Made by a program: the position numbers and the translations under genes
Notes under the pieces: generated by a model
Database searches by the model: none
Told to the model about the DNA's origin: nothing
What the model saw: the letters and a program-made list of their open reading frames with translations, nothing else
From: Promethearchaeota archaeon
Lineage (GTDB): Archaea; Asgardarchaeota; Lokiarchaeia; Sigyniarchaeales; SOKP01
Assembly: GCA_019058365.1 (NCBI GenBank)
Contig: JAHPZE010000009.1
Span: 32,001-96,000, forward strand
Length of the DNA: 64,000 bases
Direction: 5' to 3'
In this document: piece after piece, positions 7,927-41,789 of the stretch
How the letters are laid out: each line of letters opens with the position of its first letter
Position numbering within the stretch: the first letter of the stretch is position 1

Positions 7927-8517
7927 TTGAGAAAAATCATGACAGATGATAAGAAAGAAGGACAATTAGTGTTTCATGGGCGTACAGAAATGATCTTTAA
8001 GATAATCGTGATCGGAGACCCCGCAGTTGGTAAAACCAGCCTTTTAACAAATTTCTGTGGTGAAAAATTCAATTATGAGTATATACCAACCGTAGGTGTT
8101 AACATCACGAAAGAACCAGTCACAATAAAGAACGATATGGGTAAAGATATAAAAATTAATCTAATGATTTGGGATATAGCTGGTCAGCCTCAATTCTATA
8201 TGTTACATCGGCCATATTTCAACGGTGCTGATGGAATGATGTTAGTTTATGATTTAACTCGCTCAAGCTCTTTCTCAAATATAAATAATTGGTTTTCAAC
8301 CGCAGTTAAATATGGACTTTCGGGAATTCCACGTCTTTTAATTGGTAATAAAATAGATTTGAATGAAGAGCGAAAGATTATATTACCCATGGCAGAGCAT
8401 TTAAGTGAAAAAATTGATGCGCCATTTTTCGAGACTTCGGCATTAACAGGAAAAAATGTTAAATTAATTTTTGAGAAGATGGCTAAACTTACCTTTAGTT
8501 CAAAATTGGAGGAATAA
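7927..8517 (+). CDS. Rab-like small GTPase
   Basis: G1 GDPAVGKT, G2 PTVG, G3 WDIAGQ, G4 GNKID, G5 ETSAL; no CaaX; likely start ATG 7939. Confidence 0.95.
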   Translation: MRKIMTDDKKEGQLVFHGRTEMIFKIIVIGDPAVGKTSLLTNFCGEKFNYEYIPTVGVNITKEPVTIKNDMGKDIKINLMIWDIAGQPQFYMLHRPYFNGADGMMLVYDLTRSSSFSNINNWFSTAVKYGLSGIPRLLIGNKIDLNEERKIILPMAEHLSEKIDAPFFETSALTGKNVKLIFEKMAKLTFSSKLEE

Positions 8518-9708: not shown

Positions 9709-10578
9709 ATGATCCAGTACATTAACATTCTTACGAAAGACGGTAAATCGTTGTTGTTTAGGAACTATGGTAGTTCTGAAGTTGATAGAGATTTGTTAGC
9801 GGGATTTCTAAGCGCCTTTTCAGGCTTTATGAAAGAAATTAGTCAAAGTGATATTAAAAGTACACAAACTGAGGATTTCAAATATTATTATACAATCATT
9901 GACACTATTATAATTGTGGTATGTACGGACCTCGAGGACGATGATTCGGTCGTGAATTCGAAGATATTAAGCATAAGAACAAAATTTAATGATAAGTATG
10001 GGAAAATTCTTGAGAATGAAAGTTGGGGAGGAAATCGTAGTATTTTTACTGAATTTGAACATGAATTAGATAATATTATTTTAGGTGCTATTAAAGTATC
10101 GATTATAGGATTTGGGGGCGTTGGGAAAACTACATTAACAAAATTAATCTGTGGAAAGAATGTTGACCTTGAATATGTTCCTACAATTACAGCTGATATT
10201 GCTGCTTATGATGGCGATGAATTTGAAAGATCTATAACATTATGGGATTTTGCAGGACAATCCCAATTCAGATCTTTATGGAAAAGTCTTTTACAGGGAA
10301 CTGATATTACATTACTGGTTACAGATTCTACATTTGAGGGGATTAAGAATTCAAAAGAAATAATCCATGATATTTTAGATAAATTTTATCATGATAAATT
10401 AGTCATAGGCATTGCGAACAAACAAGATTTACCAAATAGGCTTACACCAGAATTTTGTGAAAAAATCATCTCCAGCGAAAGCCGTGTTATTAAGACTTAT
10501 GGTATGATTGCGATTGAACCTATGTATCGAGAGAAAATTTTAGCAATTTTGAAAGAAGCTATTAAAAAAATTTCATAA
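9709..10578 (+). CDS. Longin domain-small GTPase fusion
   Basis: N-terminal longin pattern (INILTKDGKSLLFRNY...DLLAGFLSAF); GFGGVGKT, WDFAGQ, ANKQD. Confidence 0.9.
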   Translation: MIQYINILTKDGKSLLFRNYGSSEVDRDLLAGFLSAFSGFMKEISQSDIKSTQTEDFKYYYTIIDTIIIVVCTDLEDDDSVVNSKILSIRTKFNDKYGKILENESWGGNRSIFTEFEHELDNIILGAIKVSIIGFGGVGKTTLTKLICGKNVDLEYVPTITADIAAYDGDEFERSITLWDFAGQSQFRSLWKSLLQGTDITLLVTDSTFEGIKNSKEIIHDILDKFYHDKLVIGIANKQDLPNRLTPEFCEKIISSESRVIKTYGMIAIEPMYREKILAILKEAIKKIS

Positions 10579-24170: not shown

Positions 24171-24686
24171 TTGGAATATCAAAATATTCTTATGATAAAA
24201 CGTGTACTCTTTTACTGTGCGGGAAACACTTGTAGAAGTCCTTTTGCTGAAGCATATGCAAATTGGTTAAAAAAAACTAAGTTTAAAAAAGAACTACGAG
24301 AAGTAGAATTTGATTCCGCTGGGATCTACCACTATTATAAAACTGCTCAACCTGGAACAATAAATTATCTAAAGTTAAAAGGCATTGATATTAGTGATTT
24401 TACAACAAAAAAAATTAATTCAAAATTACTTGAGAAGCAAGATCTAATTTTAGGGTTCGAGCAAAAACATCACATTAACAAATTGAAAAGAAAATTTAAG
24501 AATCTTAAAGGAATTGACGATAAAGTCTTCTTATTATTAAAATATGTTGGTGAAAAAGAGAATTTAGAGATAAAAGATCCTTTTTATTTACCACAAGATG
24601 AGTATAATAAAATTCTTGAGAGGATCGAGAAAGGAGTATTGAAACTCATAGAAAAAATTATTGAAGTTAATAGAAAGGAAGAATAA
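24171..24686 (+). CDS. Low-molecular-weight protein phosphatase (LMW-PTP family)
   Basis: P-loop CAGNTCRS, DSAG, general-acid DPF; likely start ATG 24192. Confidence 0.92.
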   Translation: MEYQNILMIKRVLFYCAGNTCRSPFAEAYANWLKKTKFKKELREVEFDSAGIYHYYKTAQPGTINYLKLKGIDISDFTTKKINSKLLEKQDLILGFEQKHHINKLKRKFKNLKGIDDKVFLLLKYVGEKENLEIKDPFYLPQDEYNKILERIEKGVLKLIEKIIEVNRKEE

Positions 24687-24710
24687 GATCTAATTAATTT
24701 TATTTTTAAT

Positions 24711-26366
24711 TTATAAAAATTCAGAATACTTTTGACTGAAATATTTTTTTATTATATATTTAGTTGATGCAAATTTCTGAATATTTCCCTGAAAGTTCTT
24801 AAGGTCTTTAGAAAATGTTTGTTCAAACTCTTGTGAAAAATTATCAAGTTTTTTGAATAAAACAGGTAAGTCCGTAGTGGCTATTAAAGCAGCAATATGA
24901 TATTTTCCGAATGCAAAAAAAAGATGGTTTCCTTCTTTATCAATTTTCTTAATATACTTTTTACTTTGAGTTATTTCAGAGATAATAGTTATTATTCCTG
25001 ATAATGCGCCAGAAATAAGATCTTCATCAATTACACATTCAGTTTCCTCTTCTTTAGGCTGATATTTTTGTATAAAACTATGATTATAAATACAAACTCC
25101 ACTATTGCTGAAGATAAAAATGCTCTTTAACGCCTTTGCCCAATCTCTTTCTTTAGAAACCAAAATATCTTTTCCCGCCATTATCCAAACAAGAGTAATA
25201 ACTAAAACAAATGAATTGAGTAGGTTAGGCAAGTTTGGTAACACAGTTTCAATATTTGTTTCTGCATAAAGGACATCAATCCATCGATATAATAAATATC
25301 CTAAGGCAAGCCCAAAGCACATCAATGACATAAAAAGACCATTTATTCCTCCTCTATATTTTAAATTACCTCTTTCAGTCGAAAAATCTCCAGAGATTGT
25401 AATTATTGCTAATATTAGTGGAAGAATGGCCAAAGCGTAATGAATCGAGATATGGATTTTTATCGGAATCCAAAATACAGATTCTACATTTGGAAGATAA
25501 AAGGAACTATGCGATATATAAAAAAAGGAAACTACTAAAATTCCTATAATTAATGTATTCTTTCGGCCAACATTATCAAAAAACCAACCCGCAGCAATAA
25601 CATAAAAAAACGATATTACTGAAAAAGTTATAATATCAATGTTATACCCGTTGAAATAATCCAAGGATGTATACAATAAACCTCCTAAAATGCCACTTAA
25701 AAGGGCAAAAGTAATCGAATATCGAGAAAAATGTTTCTCAAAAATTAATTTTAAATATTTCTTATCAGATTTAAGTCTCTTTTCAGTCTCAATATATTTA
25801 TAGGTCCTTGAAAACCATACTATAATGATTAAGAAAATGGCTTCTATAATGATAAGAAAGATGAATAAATCCTTAAAAAAAATAAATATAAGCCCCGTTA
25901 AGCCTATAAGAAAGCAAGTCATTAATAATATTGCTGATATTCTTCCTCTATTTAAGATAGTTGTTTCATGAACTAGCGTTGAAAACCAAACTATAATTAA
26001 TTGAGGGATCGAAATCAATACAATTATTAAACTAATCAGATTAGTTAAAGGATATGAAAATGTACTTAGATACAAGCCTAATATACAAATAGACAGAGTT
26101 ATAATGTACAATCTTGTTTTATTTTTAATGATATCAACAAGGAATCCAGATAATAAGAAAATGAGAGAAATTACAAATAAGATGATAATTACTGGAATCT
26201 CTCGAGCAAACTCATGGGTCATATTAACAAAATAATCGAGTATAAAAAATTCAACTATTAAAATAATAGCAAGAAAAGAGAAAAACAAATAAAAAAATGA
26301 TTTCTTTCCTATGTTTAAATCTTTAGCAAATACTTTTCCAAACCAATATTTTATACTTTTTTTCAT
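24711..26366 (-). CDS. MFS-fold membrane protein fused to C-terminal longin domain (paralogue 1)
   Basis: ~12 TM; MFS motif A GWFFDNVGRK; soluble C-terminal ~140 aa with longin pattern (IFIFSNSGVCIYNHSF...DEDLISGALSGI). Confidence 0.8.
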   Translation of the reverse strand: MKKSIKYWFGKVFAKDLNIGKKSFFYLFFSFLAIILIVEFFILDYFVNMTHEFAREIPVIIILFVISLIFLLSGFLVDIIKNKTRLYIITLSICILGLYLSTFSYPLTNLISLIIVLISIPQLIIVWFSTLVHETTILNRGRISAILLMTCFLIGLTGLIFIFFKDLFIFLIIIEAIFLIIIVWFSRTYKYIETEKRLKSDKKYLKLIFEKHFSRYSITFALLSGILGGLLYTSLDYFNGYNIDIITFSVISFFYVIAAGWFFDNVGRKNTLIIGILVVSFFYISHSSFYLPNVESVFWIPIKIHISIHYALAILPLILAIITISGDFSTERGNLKYRGGINGLFMSLMCFGLALGYLLYRWIDVLYAETNIETVLPNLPNLLNSFVLVITLVWIMAGKDILVSKERDWAKALKSIFIFSNSGVCIYNHSFIQKYQPKEEETECVIDEDLISGALSGIITIISEITQSKKYIKKIDKEGNHLFFAFGKYHIAALIATTDLPVLFKKLDNFSQEFEQTFSKDLKNFQGNIQKFASTKYIIKKYFSQKYSEFL

Positions 26367-26565
26367 ATTTCTCTTATTTAGCGATATGCTTAAATCTAAA
26401 AAAAAAAAAATAGCTTTTCTATGAATATTAGAATAGTGTTGATTTGAATTGCATATATTTGATATTTGTACTATTTTTAGGACGTCTTTTTATTTAATAT
26501 TTTTCCCATAACTATTTGAATTAAAAAAGGTTATTAAATAATCAGAAAAGAGAGTTGTTTACTAA

Positions 26566-28209
26566 TTATTTTATAAATTCACTATACTTTTGACTGAAAT
26601 ATTTTAATATGAGAAATCTTGCAGGTTGAAAGTGTTGAACATTGCCTTGAAAATTTTTAAGATCTTTACTGAATTTTTGCTCAAATTCTCTTGAAAACTC
26701 ATCAATTTTTTTAAATAAAACGGGTAATTCCATTGAAGTAATCAATGCAACTATATGATACTTTCCATAAGTAAATAGGAGAGTAGCCTCTTCTTTTTGG
26801 ATTTGTCTAAGCTGTCTTTTACTATGAGTTATTTCGGATATTATAGTAATTATTCCACTTAAGGCTCCACTAACAAGATCTTCATCGAAGTTTTCGTCAA
26901 TTGTATCTTCCTTTATTTCACTTTTATGCTCAAAACTGTAATTATAAAGACAAACTCCACTTTTATTAAAAACAAAAATATTTTTAAGAGAATCTGCCCA
27001 ATTTTTTTCTGTAGATACTAAGAATTCTTTCATCGTCATCATCCAAGCCAAAAGAATAACCAATATGAATCCATTTAGAAGATCAGGAAAATCCGGTACA
27101 AAATTATTAAGATTAGGAAATCTATTATACAAATCATTTATAAAAATATTAAAAATATATCCCAGAATTGTTCCAAAGAACAATAATGACATAAAGAGTC
27201 CATTTATTCGACCCCGAAATTTCAAATTACCTCTCTCCGTAGAAAAATCTCCTGAAATTGTAAAAATAGCAAGTAAGAGGGGCAGTATTGAGAAACCATA
27301 ATGAATAGAGAGTACAATTTTTCTTGGCATACCAAAAATATAGTCTGAATCAATAAATGAGCCATACGAAATAAGAAAAAATGAAAGAACCACAATTCCT
27401 AATACAATTGATATTTTACGGCCAATATTATCCAAACAGCATCCCGCAGCCATAAGATATAAAAATGATGCTAAAGCAAATATAAAAAAATCTACTTCAA
27501 ATCCATATCCCGCTAATAAATTTCCTAAAATGAAACTTAATACAGTAAAACTAGAAGAGTATCTAAAAAAATGTTTTTCGAAAATTATATTTAAATATTT
27601 TTTATCAGATTTCAATCTTTTTTCCGTTTCTATGTATTTGTATTTACGGGAATACCAAAAAACAATTACAAAAATGCCTAATTCTACAACGCCTAAATAA
27701 ACATATAAAAATTCAAAAATGATAAAAATAACAGAAATAAATCCTAAGGAAAAACCACAAATCATTAAATAGGTCGTTATTCTTCCTCGATTTAAAATAT
27801 TGGTTTCATGAACTAATATCGTAAACCATAATATAATTAAATGAGGAATGGTTAAGAGCACAAGCAATAAACCTAAATAATATAAAATTAATCTAGGAAT
27901 AGCACTTATAAAAAGACCAGAAATGCAAATCAGAAATATTAGATTAAAGCATCTGGTCCTATTCTTTATTTTATCCACGACAATACCAGATATGAGAAAA
28001 CCAATAGCAAGAATTACTAAAAAAACATAAATTTCTAATCCTACAACTAAAACACCGCTAGTTAATATTGTATACTTAAATAAAAAAGCTTCAGCTATTA
28101 ACGTTATAGCGAGTAAAGAGAAAAATAAATAAACTAAATTAATCCTGGGCAAATTAATGTCTCTTGTGAAAACTTTAACAAACCAGTGTTTTAACGATTC
28201 TCTTTTCAT
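26566..28209 (-). CDS. MFS-fold membrane protein fused to C-terminal longin domain (paralogue 2)
   Basis: ~12 TM; motif A GCCLDNIGRK; longin IFVFNKSGVCLYNYSF...DEDLVSGALSGI; colinear with 24711..26366. Confidence 0.8.
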   Translation of the reverse strand: MKRESLKHWFVKVFTRDINLPRINLVYLFFSLLAITLIAEAFLFKYTILTSGVLVVGLEIYVFLVILAIGFLISGIVVDKIKNRTRCFNLIFLICISGLFISAIPRLILYYLGLLLVLLTIPHLIILWFTILVHETNILNRGRITTYLMICGFSLGFISVIFIIFEFLYVYLGVVELGIFVIVFWYSRKYKYIETEKRLKSDKKYLNIIFEKHFFRYSSSFTVLSFILGNLLAGYGFEVDFFIFALASFLYLMAAGCCLDNIGRKISIVLGIVVLSFFLISYGSFIDSDYIFGMPRKIVLSIHYGFSILPLLLAIFTISGDFSTERGNLKFRGRINGLFMSLLFFGTILGYIFNIFINDLYNRFPNLNNFVPDFPDLLNGFILVILLAWMMTMKEFLVSTEKNWADSLKNIFVFNKSGVCLYNYSFEHKSEIKEDTIDENFDEDLVSGALSGIITIISEITHSKRQLRQIQKEEATLLFTYGKYHIVALITSMELPVLFKKIDEFSREFEQKFSKDLKNFQGNVQHFQPARFLILKYFSQKYSEFIK

Positions 28210-28329
28210 TAGAACTAAATAGTATTGATTTCAGTATTATTTGTTAGGGTAACTTGTTATTTAATCTTTATGTCAGAACTTTCTCATAAATTTTAATTGA
28301 AATACAATTCTTTTTATACTTGATAAAAC

Positions 28330-28809
28330 ATGAATAAAATAAAGCGAGTTTTATTTGTTTGTCTAGGAAATATTGCAAGATCTCCAGTAGCAGAATACTT
28401 AGCTCGCTACTATGCTAGAAATCTTGAAGCAGATTTGAAAATCGATTCATGTGGCTTTTTCAATGCTTTTAGTTATATGCAACCAGAATCTCGTAATTAT
28501 TTGGATTCAAAAAAGATAAATCACTCAAACTTTATTCCAAAAGTAATTAATCGTAATTTATTAAAGTCCCAGGATTTAATCCTTACAATGGAAAGAACGC
28601 ATTCGAATGATATTAAGAACAATTTTAGTGATATTATTGATATTGAAAAAAAGACTTTTACATTAATGGAGTTTAATGGGGAAACTCATAATGTCGATAT
28701 TATTGATCCCTATTGTACCACTGATGACACCTATATAAAAGTTCTTAGAATAATCGATGAAAATGTTGAGAAAGCTATTATAAAAATTATTAAAATTAAT
28801 GAATCATAG
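28330..28809 (+). CDS. Low-molecular-weight protein tyrosine phosphatase
   Basis: P-loop CLGNIARS, IDSCG, DPY. Confidence 0.9.
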   Translation: MNKIKRVLFVCLGNIARSPVAEYLARYYARNLEADLKIDSCGFFNAFSYMQPESRNYLDSKKINHSNFIPKVINRNLLKSQDLILTMERTHSNDIKNNFSDIIDIEKKTFTLMEFNGETHNVDIIDPYCTTDDTYIKVLRIIDENVEKAIIKIIKINES

Positions 28810-29619: not shown

Positions 29620-30147
29620 TTGGAACAATATAAAAAAGAGTTAAATGAAAGAATATTTAATCCAATTGAAAATATTAATTCAGTTAAAGGATTTGAAATT
29701 ATAACTGAATCCTTAGTCTATAAAGTTTATGATGTATTTGGCCGTAATAGCTTACTTTCAATTCTATATCAAACTGGAGTCTTTCCTGGCACTATTATTG
29801 CGGAGAGAATAAAAAAGGAATATAATAAAGAAAAATTTGAAATCATGGAAGCTTTAGTAATTCTAATGGATGAATTAAAAGAATTTTATTCAATACAAGT
29901 TCGAGATATTGAACAATATGAAGATAGATATAGGGTTATCATCGAAAATCACTGCTTTTTACGTAGACCAATAAGTCATCGCGAAAAGCTAGATTATGGA
30001 AAAGCATTTTGTAGGATTAATAAGGGATATTTTGAGACTGCCTTCCAGAAACTCTTAGGGGATAATGTAAAGAAAATTGAAATAAATTTTCTTGAAAATG
30101 ATGCTGAGAAAGACGTATGTGTAGAAGAACTTACTTTTTATATTTAA
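29620..30147 (+). CDS. V4R-domain (TRAPP/Bet3-related fold) protein
   Basis: LYQTGVFPG helix; NHCF...FCRINKGYFE...DVC Cys pattern typical of V4R. Confidence 0.72.
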   Translation: MEQYKKELNERIFNPIENINSVKGFEIITESLVYKVYDVFGRNSLLSILYQTGVFPGTIIAERIKKEYNKEKFEIMEALVILMDELKEFYSIQVRDIEQYEDRYRVIIENHCFLRRPISHREKLDYGKAFCRINKGYFETAFQKLLGDNVKKIEINFLENDAEKDVCVEELTFYI

Positions 30148-33443: not shown

Positions 33444-36400
33444 TTATTCTGATGGAACAGATTTGTCTTTAATTGGGGCTGTTATTTCAGTCTCTTTTTG
33501 TTGAGTAGGTTTCTTTTTAGGGACTGGTGGTTTTATTTTTAATGTGCTGGATGTTTTATTTAATTCATTTTGATAAACGGAATTGAATGCTTTTTCACGA
33601 TTAATTATATTTATACTAGGAGCCGTTTTACGCTTCAAACTTTTTCTGAATTTCCGAACTTTTCTAACAGCTTTTGGAAATCTTAAGATACGCATATAAA
33701 CTACTAAATATGATACTAAAATTCCTGCTGCTATTGAAATACCGATAAGTAATCCTAGCCACAATAGTGTATTCTCTTTAGGTCTAATTACGCTTAGAAC
33801 TATTTCATATGGTTCAAAATTATAATGTTCACCGGAATATGCATATATAGTTATAATAAATGAACCTACTGGTACATTTGTTATGACTGCTTCATAAATA
33901 CCATCATTATCAGGATCTGTTAAATCAGCTTCTCCATATTGCCATCTATAAGTTACTGCTGCTCCTTTAATAATACCACCAAAATCTAAATCATATAATA
34001 CTATTCTTAATGTAATAGATTTACCTGGTGTAGTAGAAATTGTTGTTTCTCCTGATACTGTCGTTATATTTGTACTAATCCGTCTAATATTTATATAAAT
34101 ATTTTGAATGATATATGATTGAAAATTCGGTCTTTCAGCTATGATACTAAAAACATTTATACCGATATTTAATTGAGTTGTATTAATAATAAGATAATAT
34201 TGTTCTAAAGTAGCACTCTCATTTAAAACGTCCGTTAGATCTCCATCTATTCGGATCGTTGCCCCAGGAATATACTCTCTTGTCCTACCATCAAGAAACC
34301 TTACAGTCAAATTTAACAGACTTCTAATAGGAAGTTCGAGATATGGATCAGCTGTTTTGTTTATTCCATTTAGAAATAATATACCCATCGATTCTCTTTC
34401 AACTACTTGTACAAAAAATTCTATTAATGCATATTCATAATTTTCTAATTGTGCTCGTATAGATAATCTGTTAAGTTGTTTTTCTAAATCAAATACATTT
34501 ACAGTTATATTATAATATTCTAAAATATTGTTCTCATCTAAGAATCCTTTCCCAATTAATTCAATAGTTGCATTATTAAGAAATGTTTTTGTAACATTAT
34601 CAAGATACTTTACAGTAACATTGAGTTTATCATTAATTTCAGCTTCTATTGTCTCACCATCAAAATATTGAGTACCATTTATAAATAATTGTATTGTAGT
34701 TTTCTTTTCTTCAATCATAAGTGTTATTAAAGTTGTAGAAAGTGTATAATTGTCTTTTTTTGCTGTTATGGTTAAAAATTTAACACCTGCTCCTAATTTT
34801 TCCATTTCAAAAGTTATACTATAAAAATCAAAGAATAGACTTTCATTTACGTCATACAGTTTACCTGATTCAATTAATTGTACCGATGCTAAATTAATGA
34901 ATAAATCAGTATCCAAATCTTTATAGAACACTGTTATATTCAGATATTCACCTACAGAAGTATTATAAAACTGAGATGCTGTATACTTTGAATTATTGAT
35001 ATAAATTTCTAAATAAGTTTGTCTTTCTAAAACAGAGACTGTAATAATTCTAGTTGATAAGCTATAATTATCTTTTTGGGCTGAGATCGTCAAAAAATTA
35101 ATCCCAAGGTTTAGCTTTCGAGTGTTAATATCTATCGAATAATTTAATGGAGAATTATCAGTGAAGTTTCGTGAGATTCTAGTACCTGTAAGGAGTACTA
35201 AAGCATTATTAATGAAATTATTAGTATAAGTATCATTATATGTCATAATTATGTTTAAAGTTGTATTCCATGGAATTTCTATGAAGTTAGTTTCCGTGTT
35301 ATTTAAAAATATTTTATCAATGTAAGAACTTCTTTCAAGCACTTCAATCTTAAAGCGAATAGATTGAGATGTATAATTTTCTTTTTCAGCACTAACAGTT
35401 AAATAAGTATTTCCCAATCCTAAATCTTTTGTATCAATGATTATTGTATATTGTGGGAGTACTGGGTCTTCAGACACATTCTTGGGGGCTCCCAGTCCTG
35501 TTAATTCTACAGTCGCGTTACTAATATGGACAGAAGGTAGTATCTCTTTATCTTTATACGTTATTGTTATATTCCCACTATTCCCATAAATCATTTGGAT
35601 AGACTTATCCAAAGTTTTATCAGTTTTATCTAAATAAAGCTGTAATTCAGTTTCTCTTGCAATTACTTCAATATTAATCAGAATAGATATTGATTCATAA
35701 TATTTCTTACTCGCAGATAAAGTTAAGAAATTATTTCCAAGACTTAATTTAGATGTATGAATAGTGATATTATATTGATTATAAATATCATCTTCTGACA
35801 AATCTTTGGGAGATCCTAACCCAATTAATTGTACTGTAGCATTTTGAATAAATTGTGATGATGTTTGGTTCATGTAAATGAATGTGATATTAACAGGATC
35901 ACCCATAGTGACCTCGATTGATTTTTCCAAGGTTTTATCTATAGAGTTTAGAAATAGATTATAGGATGTTGTATCTTCTACAACGTTTTCTGTATAAGAA
36001 ATTAATAAACTTGCATTATCTATTGATATTATAATTGTTTCATTCAAAGTAAATGTATCTGCTAAATATACCTCTATTGAGACACTTATATTATCATCTT
36101 TTGATACTATATCTTTAACATCAAAGCCTCCACTTTTAATGTCTCGAAATTCAGACCATGCCTTACTTAATTTAACGGTTTCTGAATGAATTCTATTATT
36201 AATATAAACTCGTATTTCTGAATTAGGAGATAAAACTGTCCAATTTTTATCAATTTTATATTTAAAATTTAAAGTTGCATTAATTATATCAATTGTACTT
36301 CCTACAGTTTTATGTGTAATTTTATTCCCAACCTGATTCCAAGATAGTGCAGTAAGCTGATTAATTTTTTTCTCAAAAGTAAAATTTAAACTTACTGACT

Positions 36401-37334
36401 TTATTATTAGCAATTTCCAATTGTCCGCATCTTGTGGAAAATTATCCTCACACCAAATTCTCATTCCTATTAAGATTGTGAAATTGTTAAAATTATAACT
36501 GAGTACTGACGTTAAATAGAATATTAAAATATCTTCAGGGATAGTTACCATAAGCGTATCGTTTATGTGATCAATTATAGGAGAATCCTGACCCAGTTTC
36601 CAGGTTTGATTATAAGCAACCTCAAAAATACTATTATTTGCTATATCAGATATCCAAACATAGAATCGGACATAATCTCCTGTTGATGCTTGAAAGTCTG
36701 CTGGATCAATTCCAGAATCGCTTAATACATCAATAGCACCCGTAAAATCGTCCCCAGGTTGATCCCAAGAGGGTGTTGCTTGAACTGTGGCATTAAAAAT
36801 CGCTGTAAGATTTGCAGATGTAATAACATAATCTGACATATCAACCGGCATATTAAGTATTCTATACCAATTTACAGCTACAGACTGATCAGCACTCTCA
36901 TCCCAATAATGGCTAACACAAGCACCACTAGCATTAATGTTAGTAGTATCTGGATAAGCTGGGAAGTTTGGATTTTTTGATTTAGTCCAATTTGAATCTT
37001 GTGTTAAATCAGAATAAAACTCATAATCATACTTTTTACCTAATACTTCATAATTTGCCTGATTGAGAGTTGTCGTAGCATTAATATCAGAAATATCTCC
37101 TTCTGTTGTATTATACCATGGATCTATGGGTGTTTCAAAAGTAGGATTATCAAGCCATTCTTTTGTATATAGATCTTGTACAATACCTTGGCTATTAGGT
37201 GCTGAATCATAATTTATATTATTGTTAGTATTTTGATTTAATAAGTAACTACTTATTAAAATATTGGATAGCAGTGAGGAAGTAATGATAATAAAGATTA
37301 AAATCCTTTTATTCTTACAGTAATTATTTCTCAT
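33444..37334 (-). CDS. Large type-I membrane surface glycoprotein with tandem Ig-like repeats
   Basis: N-terminal hydrophobic signal; ~100-aa repeats (NITV.Y.D...I.NATV.L...Y.I.I.T..L..G.N.LT..A.K.NY); many NxS/T sequons; C-terminal TM plus basic tail. Confidence 0.88.
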   Translation of the reverse strand: MRNNYCKNKRILIFIIITSSLLSNILISSYLLNQNTNNNINYDSAPNSQGIVQDLYTKEWLDNPTFETPIDPWYNTTEGDISDINATTTLNQANYEVLGKKYDYEFYSDLTQDSNWTKSKNPNFPAYPDTTNINASGACVSHYWDESADQSVAVNWYRILNMPVDMSDYVITSANLTAIFNATVQATPSWDQPGDDFTGAIDVLSDSGIDPADFQASTGDYVRFYVWISDIANNSIFEVAYNQTWKLGQDSPIIDHINDTLMVTIPEDILIFYLTSVLSYNFNNFTILIGMRIWCEDNFPQDADNWKLLIIKSVSLNFTFEKKINQLTALSWNQVGNKITHKTVGSTIDIINATLNFKYKIDKNWTVLSPNSEIRVYINNRIHSETVKLSKAWSEFRDIKSGGFDVKDIVSKDDNISVSIEVYLADTFTLNETIIISIDNASLLISYTENVVEDTTSYNLFLNSIDKTLEKSIEVTMGDPVNITFIYMNQTSSQFIQNATVQLIGLGSPKDLSEDDIYNQYNITIHTSKLSLGNNFLTLSASKKYYESISILINIEVIARETELQLYLDKTDKTLDKSIQMIYGNSGNITITYKDKEILPSVHISNATVELTGLGAPKNVSEDPVLPQYTIIIDTKDLGLGNTYLTVSAEKENYTSQSIRFKIEVLERSSYIDKIFLNNTETNFIEIPWNTTLNIIMTYNDTYTNNFINNALVLLTGTRISRNFTDNSPLNYSIDINTRKLNLGINFLTISAQKDNYSLSTRIITVSVLERQTYLEIYINNSKYTASQFYNTSVGEYLNITVFYKDLDTDLFINLASVQLIESGKLYDVNESLFFDFYSITFEMEKLGAGVKFLTITAKKDNYTLSTTLITLMIEEKKTTIQLFINGTQYFDGETIEAEINDKLNVTVKYLDNVTKTFLNNATIELIGKGFLDENNILEYYNITVNVFDLEKQLNRLSIRAQLENYEYALIEFFVQVVERESMGILFLNGINKTADPYLELPIRSLLNLTVRFLDGRTREYIPGATIRIDGDLTDVLNESATLEQYYLIINTTQLNIGINVFSIIAERPNFQSYIIQNIYINIRRISTNITTVSGETTISTTPGKSITLRIVLYDLDFGGIIKGAAVTYRWQYGEADLTDPDNDGIYEAVITNVPVGSFIITIYAYSGEHYNFEPYEIVLSVIRPKENTLLWLGLLIGISIAAGILVSYLVVYMRILRFPKAVRKVRKFRKSLKRKTAPSINIINREKAFNSVYQNELNKTSSTLKIKPPVPKKKPTQQKETEITAPIKDKSVPSE

Positions 37335-37691: not shown

Positions 37692-40600
37692 TTAATCTTT
37701 AATCAATTCATCTAATTCTTCCTTTTTCTTAATAGTTTTCTCAGTTAATTGATCTGGTACTATTTTAGACTCTGTTAGCTGTGGTTCCAATTTTTTTAAT
37801 GGCGATGAGGGCTCTACAGGTTTAGCTTTTAATTTTTGAACTCCCCCTAATTCTTCCTTATAAAGCATGGAAAATGCTTTTTCTCGGCTTGTAATATGTA
37901 CACTAGGAGTTGATTTTCTTTTTAATGTTCTTTTATATTTTCGGACCTTTCTTACTGGCTTTGGATATTTGAGATATCTTTGATAAGCGTAGAAATAGCT
38001 TCCCAATATAGTTGCTCCTATAACCGAAATTATAAATAGGATTAGAAATAAATTATCCATTGTTGGTTGGGCGATTACTGTTACAATAATCTCATACCTC
38101 TGAAAATCATAATCGTCTCCTGCAAATGCAGTTATTGTTATAGTAAACGAACCAACTGGTATATTAGAGATTTTCGATTCATATATTCCATCGTCGTTAT
38201 TGTCTGTTAATACTCCTTGACCATTTTGCCATCGATATTCTACAGTTGCATTTAAAATTAAGCCTCCAAAATCTAAATTATTAAGTTTGATTTTCAAATC
38301 AACAGACTGACCCTCGTTGATATTGATAACGTTAGATCCTGATAAGGTTGTAATATTAGTTATAATGCGTCTTATGTCTAATCTAATATTAATTATTTTT
38401 AGTTGGTAATTATTTCTTTGTGCTACAACAGTTAATAATCTTACTCCTATATCTAATTGACGTGTATCTAATAAAGTTGTATACTGTTCTAAACTAATAC
38501 TTTGATTTAATGAATCAGATAAACCTTCACCAAGAAGTTTCACATCAGCATTATTAATAAAATTACCGAGCAAATCTGAATATTTCACGGTAATATTCAA
38601 TGATGATCCAATAGGTAATTCTAAAAATGGATCTCCAGTTTTATTATTACCATTAAAAAACAGTTGAAGATTTGCCATTCTTTCGGTGATCTCTACGGTT
38701 ATTTGAGCAGGTTGAGATTGATAATCACTCTTAGTCGCAATGATATTCAAAATATCAATTCCTTGACCCAAAATACCCGCATCTATAGTGAAATTATATT
38801 GTTCTAAGGAAGGATTTTCATCAAAATATCCATGTCCTAACAATTCTATTGTAGCATTACTTAAGTGCGTTCCAGTTATGAAATCGGTATATATAACTGT
38901 TATATTGATTTTTTCCGAAACTTCAACAGTAATATAATTATTTGGATATATTGCTCCATTTAATAAAACAACTAACGATGTTCCCCTTACATCAAGATAT
39001 AGTGTCAATACTGTAGCAGATGAACTATAGTTTTGTAATTGCGCTGAGACCGTGAGAAATGTAGCCCCAACATGCAAAAGGGATGTATTAAATACTATTT
39101 CATATTGTGAATAAATATAACTTTCGTTTATAATCTTAGAAAGTCCTCCTCCAACAACTCTAGCAGTTGCTCCACTTAGAAAGTCGCCAGAAATTTGATC
39201 TTTATAGCTAAATGATATGTTTAACAGTTCACCAGACGTAAGAGTTATACTCTTATCCGTTATTTTTTCAATTCCATTAAGAAAAACATTATCAATGTAC
39301 GTTTCCCTTTCAATTATTTCGATTTTAATTAGAATATTCTGAGATTCATAGTTGGATTCATTTACACTAATTATTAGCGAATGCATTTTATTTACTTCGT
39401 ATAAAGAACTATTAAACTCCATATTGTAGATTCCTGGTGACATCATAGTTGTAGATGATTCTCCTAACCAATTACTTGTAGGAGAAGTAATTATCCCATT
39501 TCCCGTTGTAGTTTCAGTGTAATTCAAATGAATAGTGAAATTTTCATTCCAAGGTACTTGCAAATATGGAAATTCTTGAGCTGTTAGCGAAGTCTTGAGT
39601 ACCAGATTTATAGTAATTAGATTAGAATTATTTTGATATAAAGATGAATTTGCATATATAGTAAGCAAATTGTCACCAGCGACACCTCCAGAGGTATTAA
39701 AGTCTAATAAAACATAAAATCCTGGGCTAATTTCATTAAAATATTCTCTACCACCCAAGAAGTTATCGGTATAGATTATAGCGTCTCTAATTGCATCTCC
39801 ATTCTCTTTATCATTAAAAGACACTAAAAGATTGATAGTATCCCCCTCAAAAATATTAGAATAATAACTCTGATCAGGTGTAAGTGTTGAGAAATGTTTT
39901 ACTGTAAATTTTTGTGTTATAATACCTGTTTCATTCAATCCGAATATTGAATAAGAGTTGTTCCAAGTAATAATGATTTCATACTCTCCAACTTCATAAT
40001 TTGGTGGAGTACTTGGTATTTGAAAATAATTAAAATCAACATTACCGTTCGAATCTGGAGATTGTAACTGATTTACTGCTGCCCAAATTGAACCATTTGG
40101 AAATCTAACCTGAAGTTTCGCTTCAGTTTGTTGAATATAGCCAGAAACTAAAAGAGAATCTGTTATCTTTGCAGTTATATTAATATAATCTCCACTAAAA
40201 AATTCTGATTCCTGAACCCAATCATTTCCCGTAGGTATACTGGTTGTATTTTTAAATATCTGTAATTCTTCACAGTAATTGGGTGATTCTGCATTAAATT
40301 TCCAGAAACCATCGGGAGTTGTTGATATTGAATTTACTGGAATTAATAATAGTCCGGCTGTAGAATTGTCACATTGAGTTAGTCTATTAACACTTGGTTG
40401 CTGGGGTTCAGATACCCAATATAAATCTATATCTGTAGGAAATTCAAGCCTCATGGTAGCTTCTTCATATCCAGTAGGAACTGCAAAATAAGCATAACTT
40501 TCCCAATTAACTAAACTGTTATTTTCTACTGAAAATTTAGTACCTTCTGAAATGATATTTGTTTCATAACTCGTCTCAGGACTATCTTTAAAAGCATATA

Positions 40601-41789
40601 AATTTAAATCTGTATCTAAGTCTATTTCATAGCTACTCAGATCCCATGTGTCATCACAACTAAAGTTTGCATACACTTTTGAAGATTGCCAATTACCATT
40701 CAATTCTAAAGAACCTTTTCCCCAATCTACATCAGTTACACTACTGTCATTTAATTTTAATTGAATTTGACTTGGTTTAACTTCGGTTTTTAATATTAAT
40801 TGAATATTATCAATGAAAATTTGTTGATAATTACCATATGTAAAACCATTATATGTTGCAGTTATTGGAGTATATTCCCATGAAAATTCGATTTGCACTG
40901 AGGAACTATTTAGTGGATTACTATAAATGTTTGAAGAATTTGTCCAAACACCCTGAGGAATACTGAAACTATGCCAACCAGTCCCAAATCGATATAATGT
41001 TAGCGAGCCAATTGAATAAATATCAATACCATTGATAGAAAATGATAAAAGATGCGAATTAAATTCCATTAGATGGTAGGGACGTACTTCAAAATATAAT
41101 TCACTATCTAATACTCTACCTCTCGGGATATTAATAGTAGATTGCCATGAGCAAATATCTCCATAATGATATGTATATGAATTAGGAGATCCTTGTCCAT
41201 CCATTCTAAGTTCTAAACTTTCCCTACCAGCAACAGACGAACTATCCATATAATTTCCACTCATAGTATTAGTCCCTGAATCAATAAATGTCCAATTTTG
41301 ATATGGATTTTCTATATCAAGTGTATCATTTTCGCCTGCGGCATATGTATTATCATCAGGTCCAAAATCGAATGTACCATTGTTCCAATTTCTAGAATCA
41401 TATAAATTCTTTATAGATGTATCTAATTTGTACCCTGTCCAATCAATTCCTAGTGGAATTTCTGCTGTATCGTATGTACCATTTGCAAAATTCACTGGTA
41501 AATCATAATCTGTTCGATTAGCATAATGGGTAACATTCCAGGAGGTTCCTATTCCACTCAAGTGATTTTCAGAAGATAAACCCTGATCGTTTAATTTGTT
41601 AATTTCAGATTTATAATTATTATTTGATTTAAAATCTACGAGATTAGTTTTATTTGGATTGCTTAAAATTATGTTCAAAGATAAGCCAAATAAAATAAAT
41701 AAGATTATAATAAACTGTTTTCTTTTACAATAATTTGATATTTTTCTCAATATATAACACCTAATAATTATTATTCTTATAATTTGCAC
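37692..41789 (-). CDS. Large type-I membrane surface glycoprotein with Ig-like repeats (paralogue)
   Basis: Same repeat type and C-terminal TM/tail as 33444..37334; likely start TTG 41750 after an AGGTG SD. Confidence 0.88.
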   Translation of the reverse strand: MQIIRIIIIRCYILRKISNYCKRKQFIIILFILFGLSLNIILSNPNKTNLVDFKSNNNYKSEINKLNDQGLSSENHLSGIGTSWNVTHYANRTDYDLPVNFANGTYDTAEIPLGIDWTGYKLDTSIKNLYDSRNWNNGTFDFGPDDNTYAAGENDTLDIENPYQNWTFIDSGTNTMSGNYMDSSSVAGRESLELRMDGQGSPNSYTYHYGDICSWQSTINIPRGRVLDSELYFEVRPYHLMEFNSHLLSFSINGIDIYSIGSLTLYRFGTGWHSFSIPQGVWTNSSNIYSNPLNSSSVQIEFSWEYTPITATYNGFTYGNYQQIFIDNIQLILKTEVKPSQIQLKLNDSSVTDVDWGKGSLELNGNWQSSKVYANFSCDDTWDLSSYEIDLDTDLNLYAFKDSPETSYETNIISEGTKFSVENNSLVNWESYAYFAVPTGYEEATMRLEFPTDIDLYWVSEPQQPSVNRLTQCDNSTAGLLLIPVNSISTTPDGFWKFNAESPNYCEELQIFKNTTSIPTGNDWVQESEFFSGDYINITAKITDSLLVSGYIQQTEAKLQVRFPNGSIWAAVNQLQSPDSNGNVDFNYFQIPSTPPNYEVGEYEIIITWNNSYSIFGLNETGIITQKFTVKHFSTLTPDQSYYSNIFEGDTINLLVSFNDKENGDAIRDAIIYTDNFLGGREYFNEISPGFYVLLDFNTSGGVAGDNLLTIYANSSLYQNNSNLITINLVLKTSLTAQEFPYLQVPWNENFTIHLNYTETTTGNGIITSPTSNWLGESSTTMMSPGIYNMEFNSSLYEVNKMHSLIISVNESNYESQNILIKIEIIERETYIDNVFLNGIEKITDKSITLTSGELLNISFSYKDQISGDFLSGATARVVGGGLSKIINESYIYSQYEIVFNTSLLHVGATFLTVSAQLQNYSSSATVLTLYLDVRGTSLVVLLNGAIYPNNYITVEVSEKINITVIYTDFITGTHLSNATIELLGHGYFDENPSLEQYNFTIDAGILGQGIDILNIIATKSDYQSQPAQITVEITERMANLQLFFNGNNKTGDPFLELPIGSSLNITVKYSDLLGNFINNADVKLLGEGLSDSLNQSISLEQYTTLLDTRQLDIGVRLLTVVAQRNNYQLKIINIRLDIRRIITNITTLSGSNVININEGQSVDLKIKLNNLDFGGLILNATVEYRWQNGQGVLTDNNDDGIYESKISNIPVGSFTITITAFAGDDYDFQRYEIIVTVIAQPTMDNLFLILFIISVIGATILGSYFYAYQRYLKYPKPVRKVRKYKRTLKRKSTPSVHITSREKAFSMLYKEELGGVQKLKAKPVEPSSPLKKLEPQLTESKIVPDQLTEKTIKKKEELDELIKD

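Follow-up and report, generated by a model that had tools for sequence, protein, structure and literature searches.

What does a longin domain do at the end of a membrane transporter? The question is raised by two adjacent genes, here called A and B, in a stretch of 64,000 nucleotides (the window) from a Promethearchaeota archaeon of the Lokiarchaeia (assembly GCA_019058365.1, contig JAHPZE010000009.1, positions 32,001 to 96,000). Each gene encodes a major facilitator superfamily (MFS) transporter fold joined to a C-terminal longin domain. An original prediction, made from the DNA letters, saw in this pair something closer to receptors than to carriers, in which different ligands feed one shared intracellular partner or the two proteins form a heterodimer through their longins. 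With a probability of about 0.4, we prefer a different answer: A and B would be working carriers whose cytoplasmic longin tails self-associate and act as a docking platform, a small GTPase being the most likely client; transport, dimerisation and docking are all inferred. Small GTPases are numerous in Asgard archaea, and so are longin and roadblock domains. A longin attached to a transporter provides a physically defined site, the cytoplasmic face of a carrier, at which such a platform must act, and a tractable entry point. The two genes are laid out as follows.

24711..26366, minus strand: gene A, MFS-longin fusion of 551 amino acids (open reading frame, AlphaFold 2 (AF2) model, tree)
25161..26366, minus strand: MFS domain of A, residues 1-402, 12 transmembrane (TM) helices with both termini inside (model, Foldseek, count of lysine and arginine)
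24714..25160, minus strand: longin domain of A, cytoplasmic, residues 403-551 (tail model; match to Fuzzy longin-1)
26566..28209, minus strand: gene B, MFS-longin fusion of 547 amino acids (open reading frame, identity to A, tree)
27019..28209, minus strand: MFS domain of B, residues 1-397 (full-length alignment with A)
26569..27018, minus strand: longin domain of B, cytoplasmic, residues 398-547 (sub-cut-off Sybindin match; 62% identity to the A tail)

A carrier fold with a longin tail

Both open reading frames are real and their products are 52% identical over the full length. The motifs quoted in the original prediction are all present in both proteins, namely HET[TN]ILNRGRI, YKYIETEKRLKSDKKYL, SGDFSTERGNLK, DEDL[IV]SGALSGIITIISEIT and KYFSQKYSEF. 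The predicted MFS unit of 12 TM helices was likewise recovered. With Pfam MFS_1 (PF07690), A scored 33.9 bits, barely above the cut-off of 33.4, and B 16.4 bits, below it; many homologues carry a precomputed PF07690 match. The AF2 model of full-length A, built from a 55-sequence alignment, has 12 long TM helices and a central loop at residues 189-210, with a predicted local distance difference test (pLDDT) score of 80.9 and a predicted template modelling score (pTM) of 0.75. Searched with Foldseek, its MFS part retrieved VMAT1/2, NorA, LmrP and YajR (E-values down to 2e-7; target template modelling scores of approximately 0.73, within a range of 0.6-0.74).

The loop between TM8 and TM9 holds the motif G..[FL]DN[VI]GRK, the C-half copy of MFS motif A, in which D264, G267, R268 and K269 are invariant; the canonical copy between TM2 and TM3 is degenerate (G74...D78..KNKTR), D78 still being invariant. 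Lysine and arginine number 28 in the inside loops and three in the outside loops, which by the positive-inside rule places the longin tail in the cytoplasm. Within the membrane, E39 in TM1 (89%), E175 in TM6 (76%) and H309/Y310 in TM10 (87-93%) are conserved across the family, as are Y255 and N384. These conserved titratable residues fit a proton-coupled carrier and, judged from sequence, A and B are probably working MFS secondary carriers of the DHA1-like structural type, with proton coupling. With the DHA1 carriers VMAT1/2, NorA and LmrP they share the 12-TM fold, the acidic residue in TM1 and the D-x-x-G-R-K loop at 13-17% identity; they differ in the degenerate TM2-TM3 motif A, in the lack of a visible antiporter motif C in TM5, in an unusually well conserved central loop (0.91 identity between A and B), and in the added longin tail. 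A feature search of the ESM Atlas returned ordinary archaeal MFS clusters alone.

The C-terminal 149 residues of A adopt the order β-β-α-β-β-β-α in both the full-length and the tail-only AF2 model (pLDDT 76 for the latter), which is the order of longins, unlike the permuted one of roadblock domains. In both models DSSP assigned strands to residues 413-420, 425-430, 474-477, 480-486 and 490-496, and helices to residues 448-466 and 501-517. The longin fold that had been predicted is thus borne out, the structural matches being Fuzzy longin-1 (Z 13.3), Sec22 (11.8), Trs23 of TRAPP (11.7) and VAMP7 (11.6), with 111-127 of the 149 residues covered; Foldseek gave TRAPP (E 2e-5), Mon1-Ccz1 and the sigma subunits of AP. 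A sequence profile of the tail, run against PDB sequences, found Trs23 (E 0.014) and TRAPPC1 (E 0.065). In Pfam the B tail matched Sybindin below the cut-off (E 0.0011; 19.4 bits against 25) and the A tail did not match it, while both stayed below the cut-off for Fuz_longin_1 (14.5-15.7 bits against 26.1). By sequence, the nearest relative of the two tails therefore appears to be Sybindin/TRAPPC1-C4 (PF04099), below the cut-off for membership, and the closest relatives in sequence and fold together are the longins of TRAPP Bet5/Trs23 and of Fuzzy/Mon1/Ccz1. Residues G457, E464, I465 and T466 of the central helix are invariant.

These relatives differ from A and B in what the longin is attached to. 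Bet5/TRAPPC1 and Trs23/TRAPPC4 of TRAPP (3CUE, 2J3T, 7B6D) have the same longin topology (Z 11.7 for 3cue_A and 11.4 for 7b6d_C) and belong to the sole family with a sequence-level signal to the tail; they pair and bind Rab as soluble subunits, whereas the longin of A and B is fused C-terminally to a 12-TM transporter. The best structural match comes from the group of Fuzzy, Mon1, Ccz1 and HPS1 (Fuz_longin_1, PF19036; 7Q3D, 5LDD, 9RS7, 8ZWC), with a root-mean-square deviation of 2.7 Å over 127 residues for Fuzzy longin-1, but these subunits of guanine nucleotide exchange factors (GEFs) carry three longins each, whereas A and B have one apiece, on a membrane protein. Roadblock/longin dimers (MglB, 6HJM and 3T1R; MK-D1 Roadblock, 9JUE; Lokiarchaeota Roadblock-Longin, 8YQG) are related in their core fold (Z 9.4-10.6) and form dimeric platforms, but the roadblock order is permuted (α-β-β-α-β-β-β) and none of those described is fused to a transporter.

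An exhaustive search recovered the longin tail as a module in proteins of 157 to 2638 amino acids, mostly without any Pfam domain. The window genome (G000) has approximately eight copies besides A and B, most of them on proteins that contain TM segments, and another genome, G128, has 68 matches to the tail profile. The tail is best assigned to a subfamily of longins that Lokiarchaeia have joined to membrane and multidomain proteins of many kinds. The G128 matches include a family of open frames of approximately 1130 amino acids, in many of which one in-frame TAA interrupts the matching part. They also include about six TM-longin genes of 360-380 amino acids in an array (C5:1285034-1291641) that adjoins two GTPase genes (C5:1291717 and C5:1292471).

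The MFS and longin folds, and Asgard longin domains, are already known, whereas full-text searches of the literature gave no description of an MFS-longin fusion. A survey of Asgard transporters (PMC7997004) mentions longin once, in general terms alone. Many roadblock/longin domains, some of them fused to GTPases, have been reported from Asgard genomes (PMC10933270), in a paper that nowhere uses the words transporter, MFS or transmembrane.

A possible GTPase platform or a regulatory tail

The reading that we prefer has three steps. The tails would first self-associate, probably through their nearly invariant central helix, the element by which roadblock and longin proteins dimerise; homodimers and mixed dimers would both be possible because A and B hardly differ in this helix. 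Crystallised Asgard longin and roadblock domains are dimers (PMC10933270; PDB 8yqg, 9jue). The tail dimer would then form a platform fixed at the membrane, and this platform would dock either a small GTPase of the Rab-like type or a protein that regulates it. Through docking, where the transporter sits or which conformation it adopts would be linked to a GTPase switch; alternatively, control would run from the GTPase to the transporter. As candidate contacts for the tail, the strongly conserved cytoplasmic loops (TM2-3, TM4-5, central, TM8-9 and TM10-11) stand out, being the parts of an MFS protein that move in each round of transport. A true GTPase link would mean that solute transport was coupled to GTPase switches before eukaryotes arose; otherwise the fusion would add another case of an MFS carrier with a regulatory tail.

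The clearest pointer to a GTPase comes from one sublineage, in which the MFS-longin gene has a Rab-like GTPase directly beside it in divergent orientation (loci of G240, G246, G267 and G245, and metagenome loci L002 and L003). A complex prediction with two G240 tails and the neighbouring GTPase, which concerns a relative and not the window proteins, scored 0.53 (runs 0.55, 0.46 and 0.53; best control 0.01), with a contact agreement between runs of at least 84% and a partner pLDDT of at least 78. In the calibration of this score 58 of 80 solved complexes passed, as did 2 of 110 mismatched pairs. Seven of the 80 solved complexes and both passing mismatches scored 0.60 or less, a band in which a pass is wrong more often than right unless the pairing was already likely. 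The model thus weakly supports binding between the G240 tails and their GTPase.

Several observations weigh against a GTPase as client. G238, within the same sublineage, has no GTPase neighbour, and the G240 score, lying in the weak band, may reflect the model's memory of the solved complexes TRAPP-Ypt1, Mon1-Ccz1-Ypt7 and MglA-MglB. In the window no GTPase lies less than 14 kb from A and B. The window genome contains 84-87 small GTPase genes, approximately one per 54 kb, so that chance proximity is common. Finally, an enrichment that speaks for the link in this genome, where a GTPase lies within 5 kb at four of seven other loci of the longin subfamily (background 15%), was not replicated in G128 (5 of 45 loci, against 13.6%), which gave a weak signal at 10 kb (17 of 45 loci against 24%; p 0.03). 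Enrichment of GTPases was dropped as family-wide support, the G000 figure not being replicated in G128 at 2-5 kb. The failure to replicate agrees with the remark that GTPase genes of MK-D1 are generally not in operons with roadblock/longin genes (PMC10933270); according to the same paper, gene order rarely helps to pair Asgard GTPases with these domains.

Two further GTPase neighbourhoods were recorded. The small-GTPase-like open reading frames nearest to the pair lie at 7927-8517 (196 amino acids) and 9709-10578 (289 amino acids) of the window, 14-16 kb away. At 6 of 10 loci of a deeper single-copy clade (L036-L043) a small GTPase lies 2.6-3.8 kb upstream on the same strand, and at least two of the four negatives are cut by contig ends.

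A realistic, if still tentative, alternative is an ordinary regulated transporter that involves no GTPase. The longin tail would then be structural or regulatory: it would dimerise, gate transport by packing on the cytoplasmic face, or place the carrier, much as the STAS domain does in SLC26 or the YAM domain in YajR. YAM itself has a ferredoxin-like fold, not a longin fold. MFS proteins with a C-terminal soluble domain are known, and Escherichia coli YajR (3WDO), in which a small soluble cytoplasmic domain follows the MFS part as in A and B, is among the fold matches (531 columns). The conserved cytoplasmic loops could dock the protein's own tail, and longin domains have roles outside GTPases, for example in SNAREs (PMC10933270). 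The locus is also dispensable within the genus, and the GTPase-free surroundings of the pair and the unreplicated enrichment sit well with this alternative. It accounts less readily for the nearest relatives of the tail being GEF-type longins (Trs23/Bet5, Fuzzy and Mon1/Ccz1), and for the sublineage with an adjacent Rab-like GTPase and its weak pass in the complex prediction.

A stronger form of the platform reading, in which the binding, activation or inactivation of a Rab-like GTPase depends on the conformational state of the MFS part, seems unlikely. Were it true, A and B would be a one-polypeptide archaeal counterpart of SLC38A9-Ragulator-Rag signalling or of membrane-bound TRAPP-type GEFs, and the tail on dozens of Lokiarchaeial membrane proteins would be a general output module into the expanded Asgard GTPase network. 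In SLC38A9-Ragulator-Rag and the fungal transceptors, a protein with a transporter fold is linked to small GTPases and a roadblock/longin platform, but these are separate proteins and the carrier is of the APC/LeuT type. The likeness to A and B is a functional analogy alone and implies no homology.

Two paralogues with little sign of two ligands

The original prediction had also noted that the cytoplasmic parts of A and B are better conserved than the TM segments and outer loops. Identity per region agrees: it is 0.70 in the cytoplasmic loops, 0.91 in the central loop and 0.60 in the cytoplasmic third of the helices, falling to 0.52 in their middle third, 0.32 in their outer third and 0.22 in the outer loops, with 0.62 in the longin domain. 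Overall, the cytoplasmic side reaches 0.64 against 0.29 for the outer side, a difference attained in none of 10,000 permutations. Nearly all invariant residues of the MFS part are cytoplasmic (D78, H133, R140, R142, Y191, E193, Y216, D264, G267-K269, G326-S329 and R338). Part of this conservation is expected of any MFS protein, because motif A and the cytoplasmic gating loops are conserved across MFS transporters generally.

We compared 14 A-type with 23 B-type orthologues, counting as type-II sites those at which each group conserves a residue of its own. Of the columns in the outer third of the helices and in the outer loops, 44-51% vary inside either group. The outer half contains eight type-II sites among 141 columns, most of them conservative substitutions; not one occurs in the 149 columns of the tail. 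Since the outer half varies within groups and type-II sites are few, the outer face looks to be under relaxed constraint rather than shaped into two tuned ligand pockets. Paralogue-specific pockets are accordingly not supported, and the different ligands of the original prediction fall with them. Its shared intracellular partner fares better: it fits the absence of type-II sites in the tail and the occurrence of related tails in many architectures, and so does shared self-association.

The word-index search yielded 119 homologues, every named source of which is an Asgard metagenome-assembled genome (MAG), labelled Promethearchaeota/Promethearchaeia (Loki_b31, Loki_b32 and others) or, in a few cases, as other Asgard phyla. 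A gene 51% identical (L127, DATKTW010000003.1) occurs in a MAG labelled Candidatus Nanopelagicaceae bacterium, probably through mis-binning or a wrong label and not through transfer. Clear orthologues (E < 1e-100) are confined to the family of the window genome, where they occur in this genome and in 22 of the 53 others of its genus; more distant MFS-longin fusions are found in other families and classes of the phylum. In the tree the A-type group has long branches compared with the B-type and is found solely in the genus of the window, while the B-type group is widespread and often single-copy. Deeper lineages have one MFS-longin gene each. G226 has an A-type without a B-type, many genomes have a B-type alone, and G185 has an independent B/B' pair, with 67% identity between its two copies and 72-77% identity to the B of the window. 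A and B are therefore not obligate partners, and the obligate heterodimer was rejected.

Together, these results make it very unlikely that A and B are transceptors, which would sense two external ligands without transport, form an obligate longin heterodimer and address one intracellular partner. Such a pair would explain why the cytoplasmic face and tail are so much better conserved than the outer face, why the tails show no group-specific differences, and why tandem pairs have at least two independent origins (A/B in several genomes, B/B' in G185). It is at odds with the variable outer half and its few type-II sites, with the lone A-type and lone B-types and with the single-copy deeper lineages. 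The conserved intramembrane residues E39, E175 and H309/Y310, which suit proton-coupled transport, together with the general conservation of MFS gating loops, also turn the comparison away from the receptor-like character originally proposed; the sequence data lean against a loss of transport.

The phosphatase slot and neighbouring genes

The carrier pair sits between two genes for low-molecular-weight protein-tyrosine phosphatases (PTPs), and a short repeated element precedes each of A and B.

24171..24686, plus strand: PTP1, low-molecular-weight PTP with P-loop CAGNTCRS and DPF Asp motif (Pfam LMWPc, E 1e-25)
28330..28809, plus strand: PTP2, low-molecular-weight PTP with P-loop CLGNIARS and DPY Asp motif (Pfam, genome-wide count, synteny)
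26474..26513, no strand assigned: 40-nt element upstream of gene A (repeat family D9; 73% identical to 28241-28280)
28241..28280, no strand assigned: 40-nt element upstream of gene B, in the divergent spacer between B and PTP2 (repeat family D9)

Along the window the genes run S8 protease, NadB, PTP1 (plus), A (minus), B (minus), PTP2 (plus), Macro and a gene of 175 amino acids. PTP1 converges with A, their stop codons lying 24 bp apart, and PTP2 diverges from B across a spacer of 120 bp. From the related 40-nt elements upstream of both genes, the duplicated unit probably included its own upstream region. The P-loop of PTP2 lacks the second cysteine of that of PTP1, and the DP[FY] Asp motif is kept in both; some relatives have a third tandem copy of the phosphatase gene (L011, L016, L057 and L059).

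In four genomes of the same genus (G188, G190, G219 and G187) PTP1 and PTP2 share a strand and are separated by 6 to approximately 340 bp with no gene in the gap, in the order S8-NadB-PTP1-PTP2-(Macro)-175-amino-acid gene (Macro was not found in G190 and G219). With its spacers the A/B pair measures 3643 bp (24687-28329) and is antisense to the flanking phosphatases. As the phosphatases are directly adjacent, in the same synteny, where the pair is missing, the pair is an accessory segment, either inserted into a core PTP tandem or deleted from it. No target-site duplications or flanking repeats were found around the 3.6-kb insert that would account for its being gained or lost repeatedly. The slot between PTP1 and PTP2, compared across L054-L059, L063 and L070-L085, occurs in six states: empty, B-type alone, A-type alone (G226), B with A, B with B' (G185), and a Rab-like GTPase with one MFS-longin gene. 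In the metagenome loci with the GTPase (L002 and L003), OsmC and an open reading frame of 69 amino acids were also called. In genus g2 and the deeper single-copy clade the fusion is located elsewhere, with no PTP in the flanks examined (1.5 to 8 kb in g2; up to approximately 7 kb elsewhere, less at contig ends).

A phosphotyrosine module, in which the flanking phosphatases would dephosphorylate the cytoplasmic Y191 (central loop) and Y216 as part of a four-gene cassette, is highly improbable: both tyrosines are conserved without exception in the family, the window genome has no clear LMWPc genes besides PTP1 and PTP2, which flank the pair directly, and the order PTP2/MFS-longin/PTP1 holds in most loci of two genera, but the PTP tandem stands without an MFS gene in the four genomes above, LMWPc genes occur in 130 of the 135 genomes of the family irrespective of the fusion, and the MFS-longin genes of g2 and the deeper clades have no PTP beside them. 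The cassette was rejected on the adjacency and unchanged synteny of the phosphatases in same-genus genomes that lack the MFS genes. The optional status of the insert thus removes an attractive but misleading signalling reading of the locus.

The conserved 175-amino-acid gene downstream of Macro (29620-30147) encodes the invariant cysteine motifs C112-F-L-R and F130-C-R-I-N-K-G-Y-F-E. It was considered as a V4R/TRAPPC3-like partner and set aside (V4R 13.4 bits against a cut-off of 31; matched by 2 of 13 orthologues), and its profile found no relative among PDB sequences. In genus g2 (L061 and L062) a homologue of this gene lies approximately 3.3 kb from the MFS-longin gene, the PTPs being elsewhere. 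Further along the window, two very large adjacent open reading frames occupy the minus strand, at 33444-37334 (1296 amino acids) and 37692-41789 (1365 amino acids).

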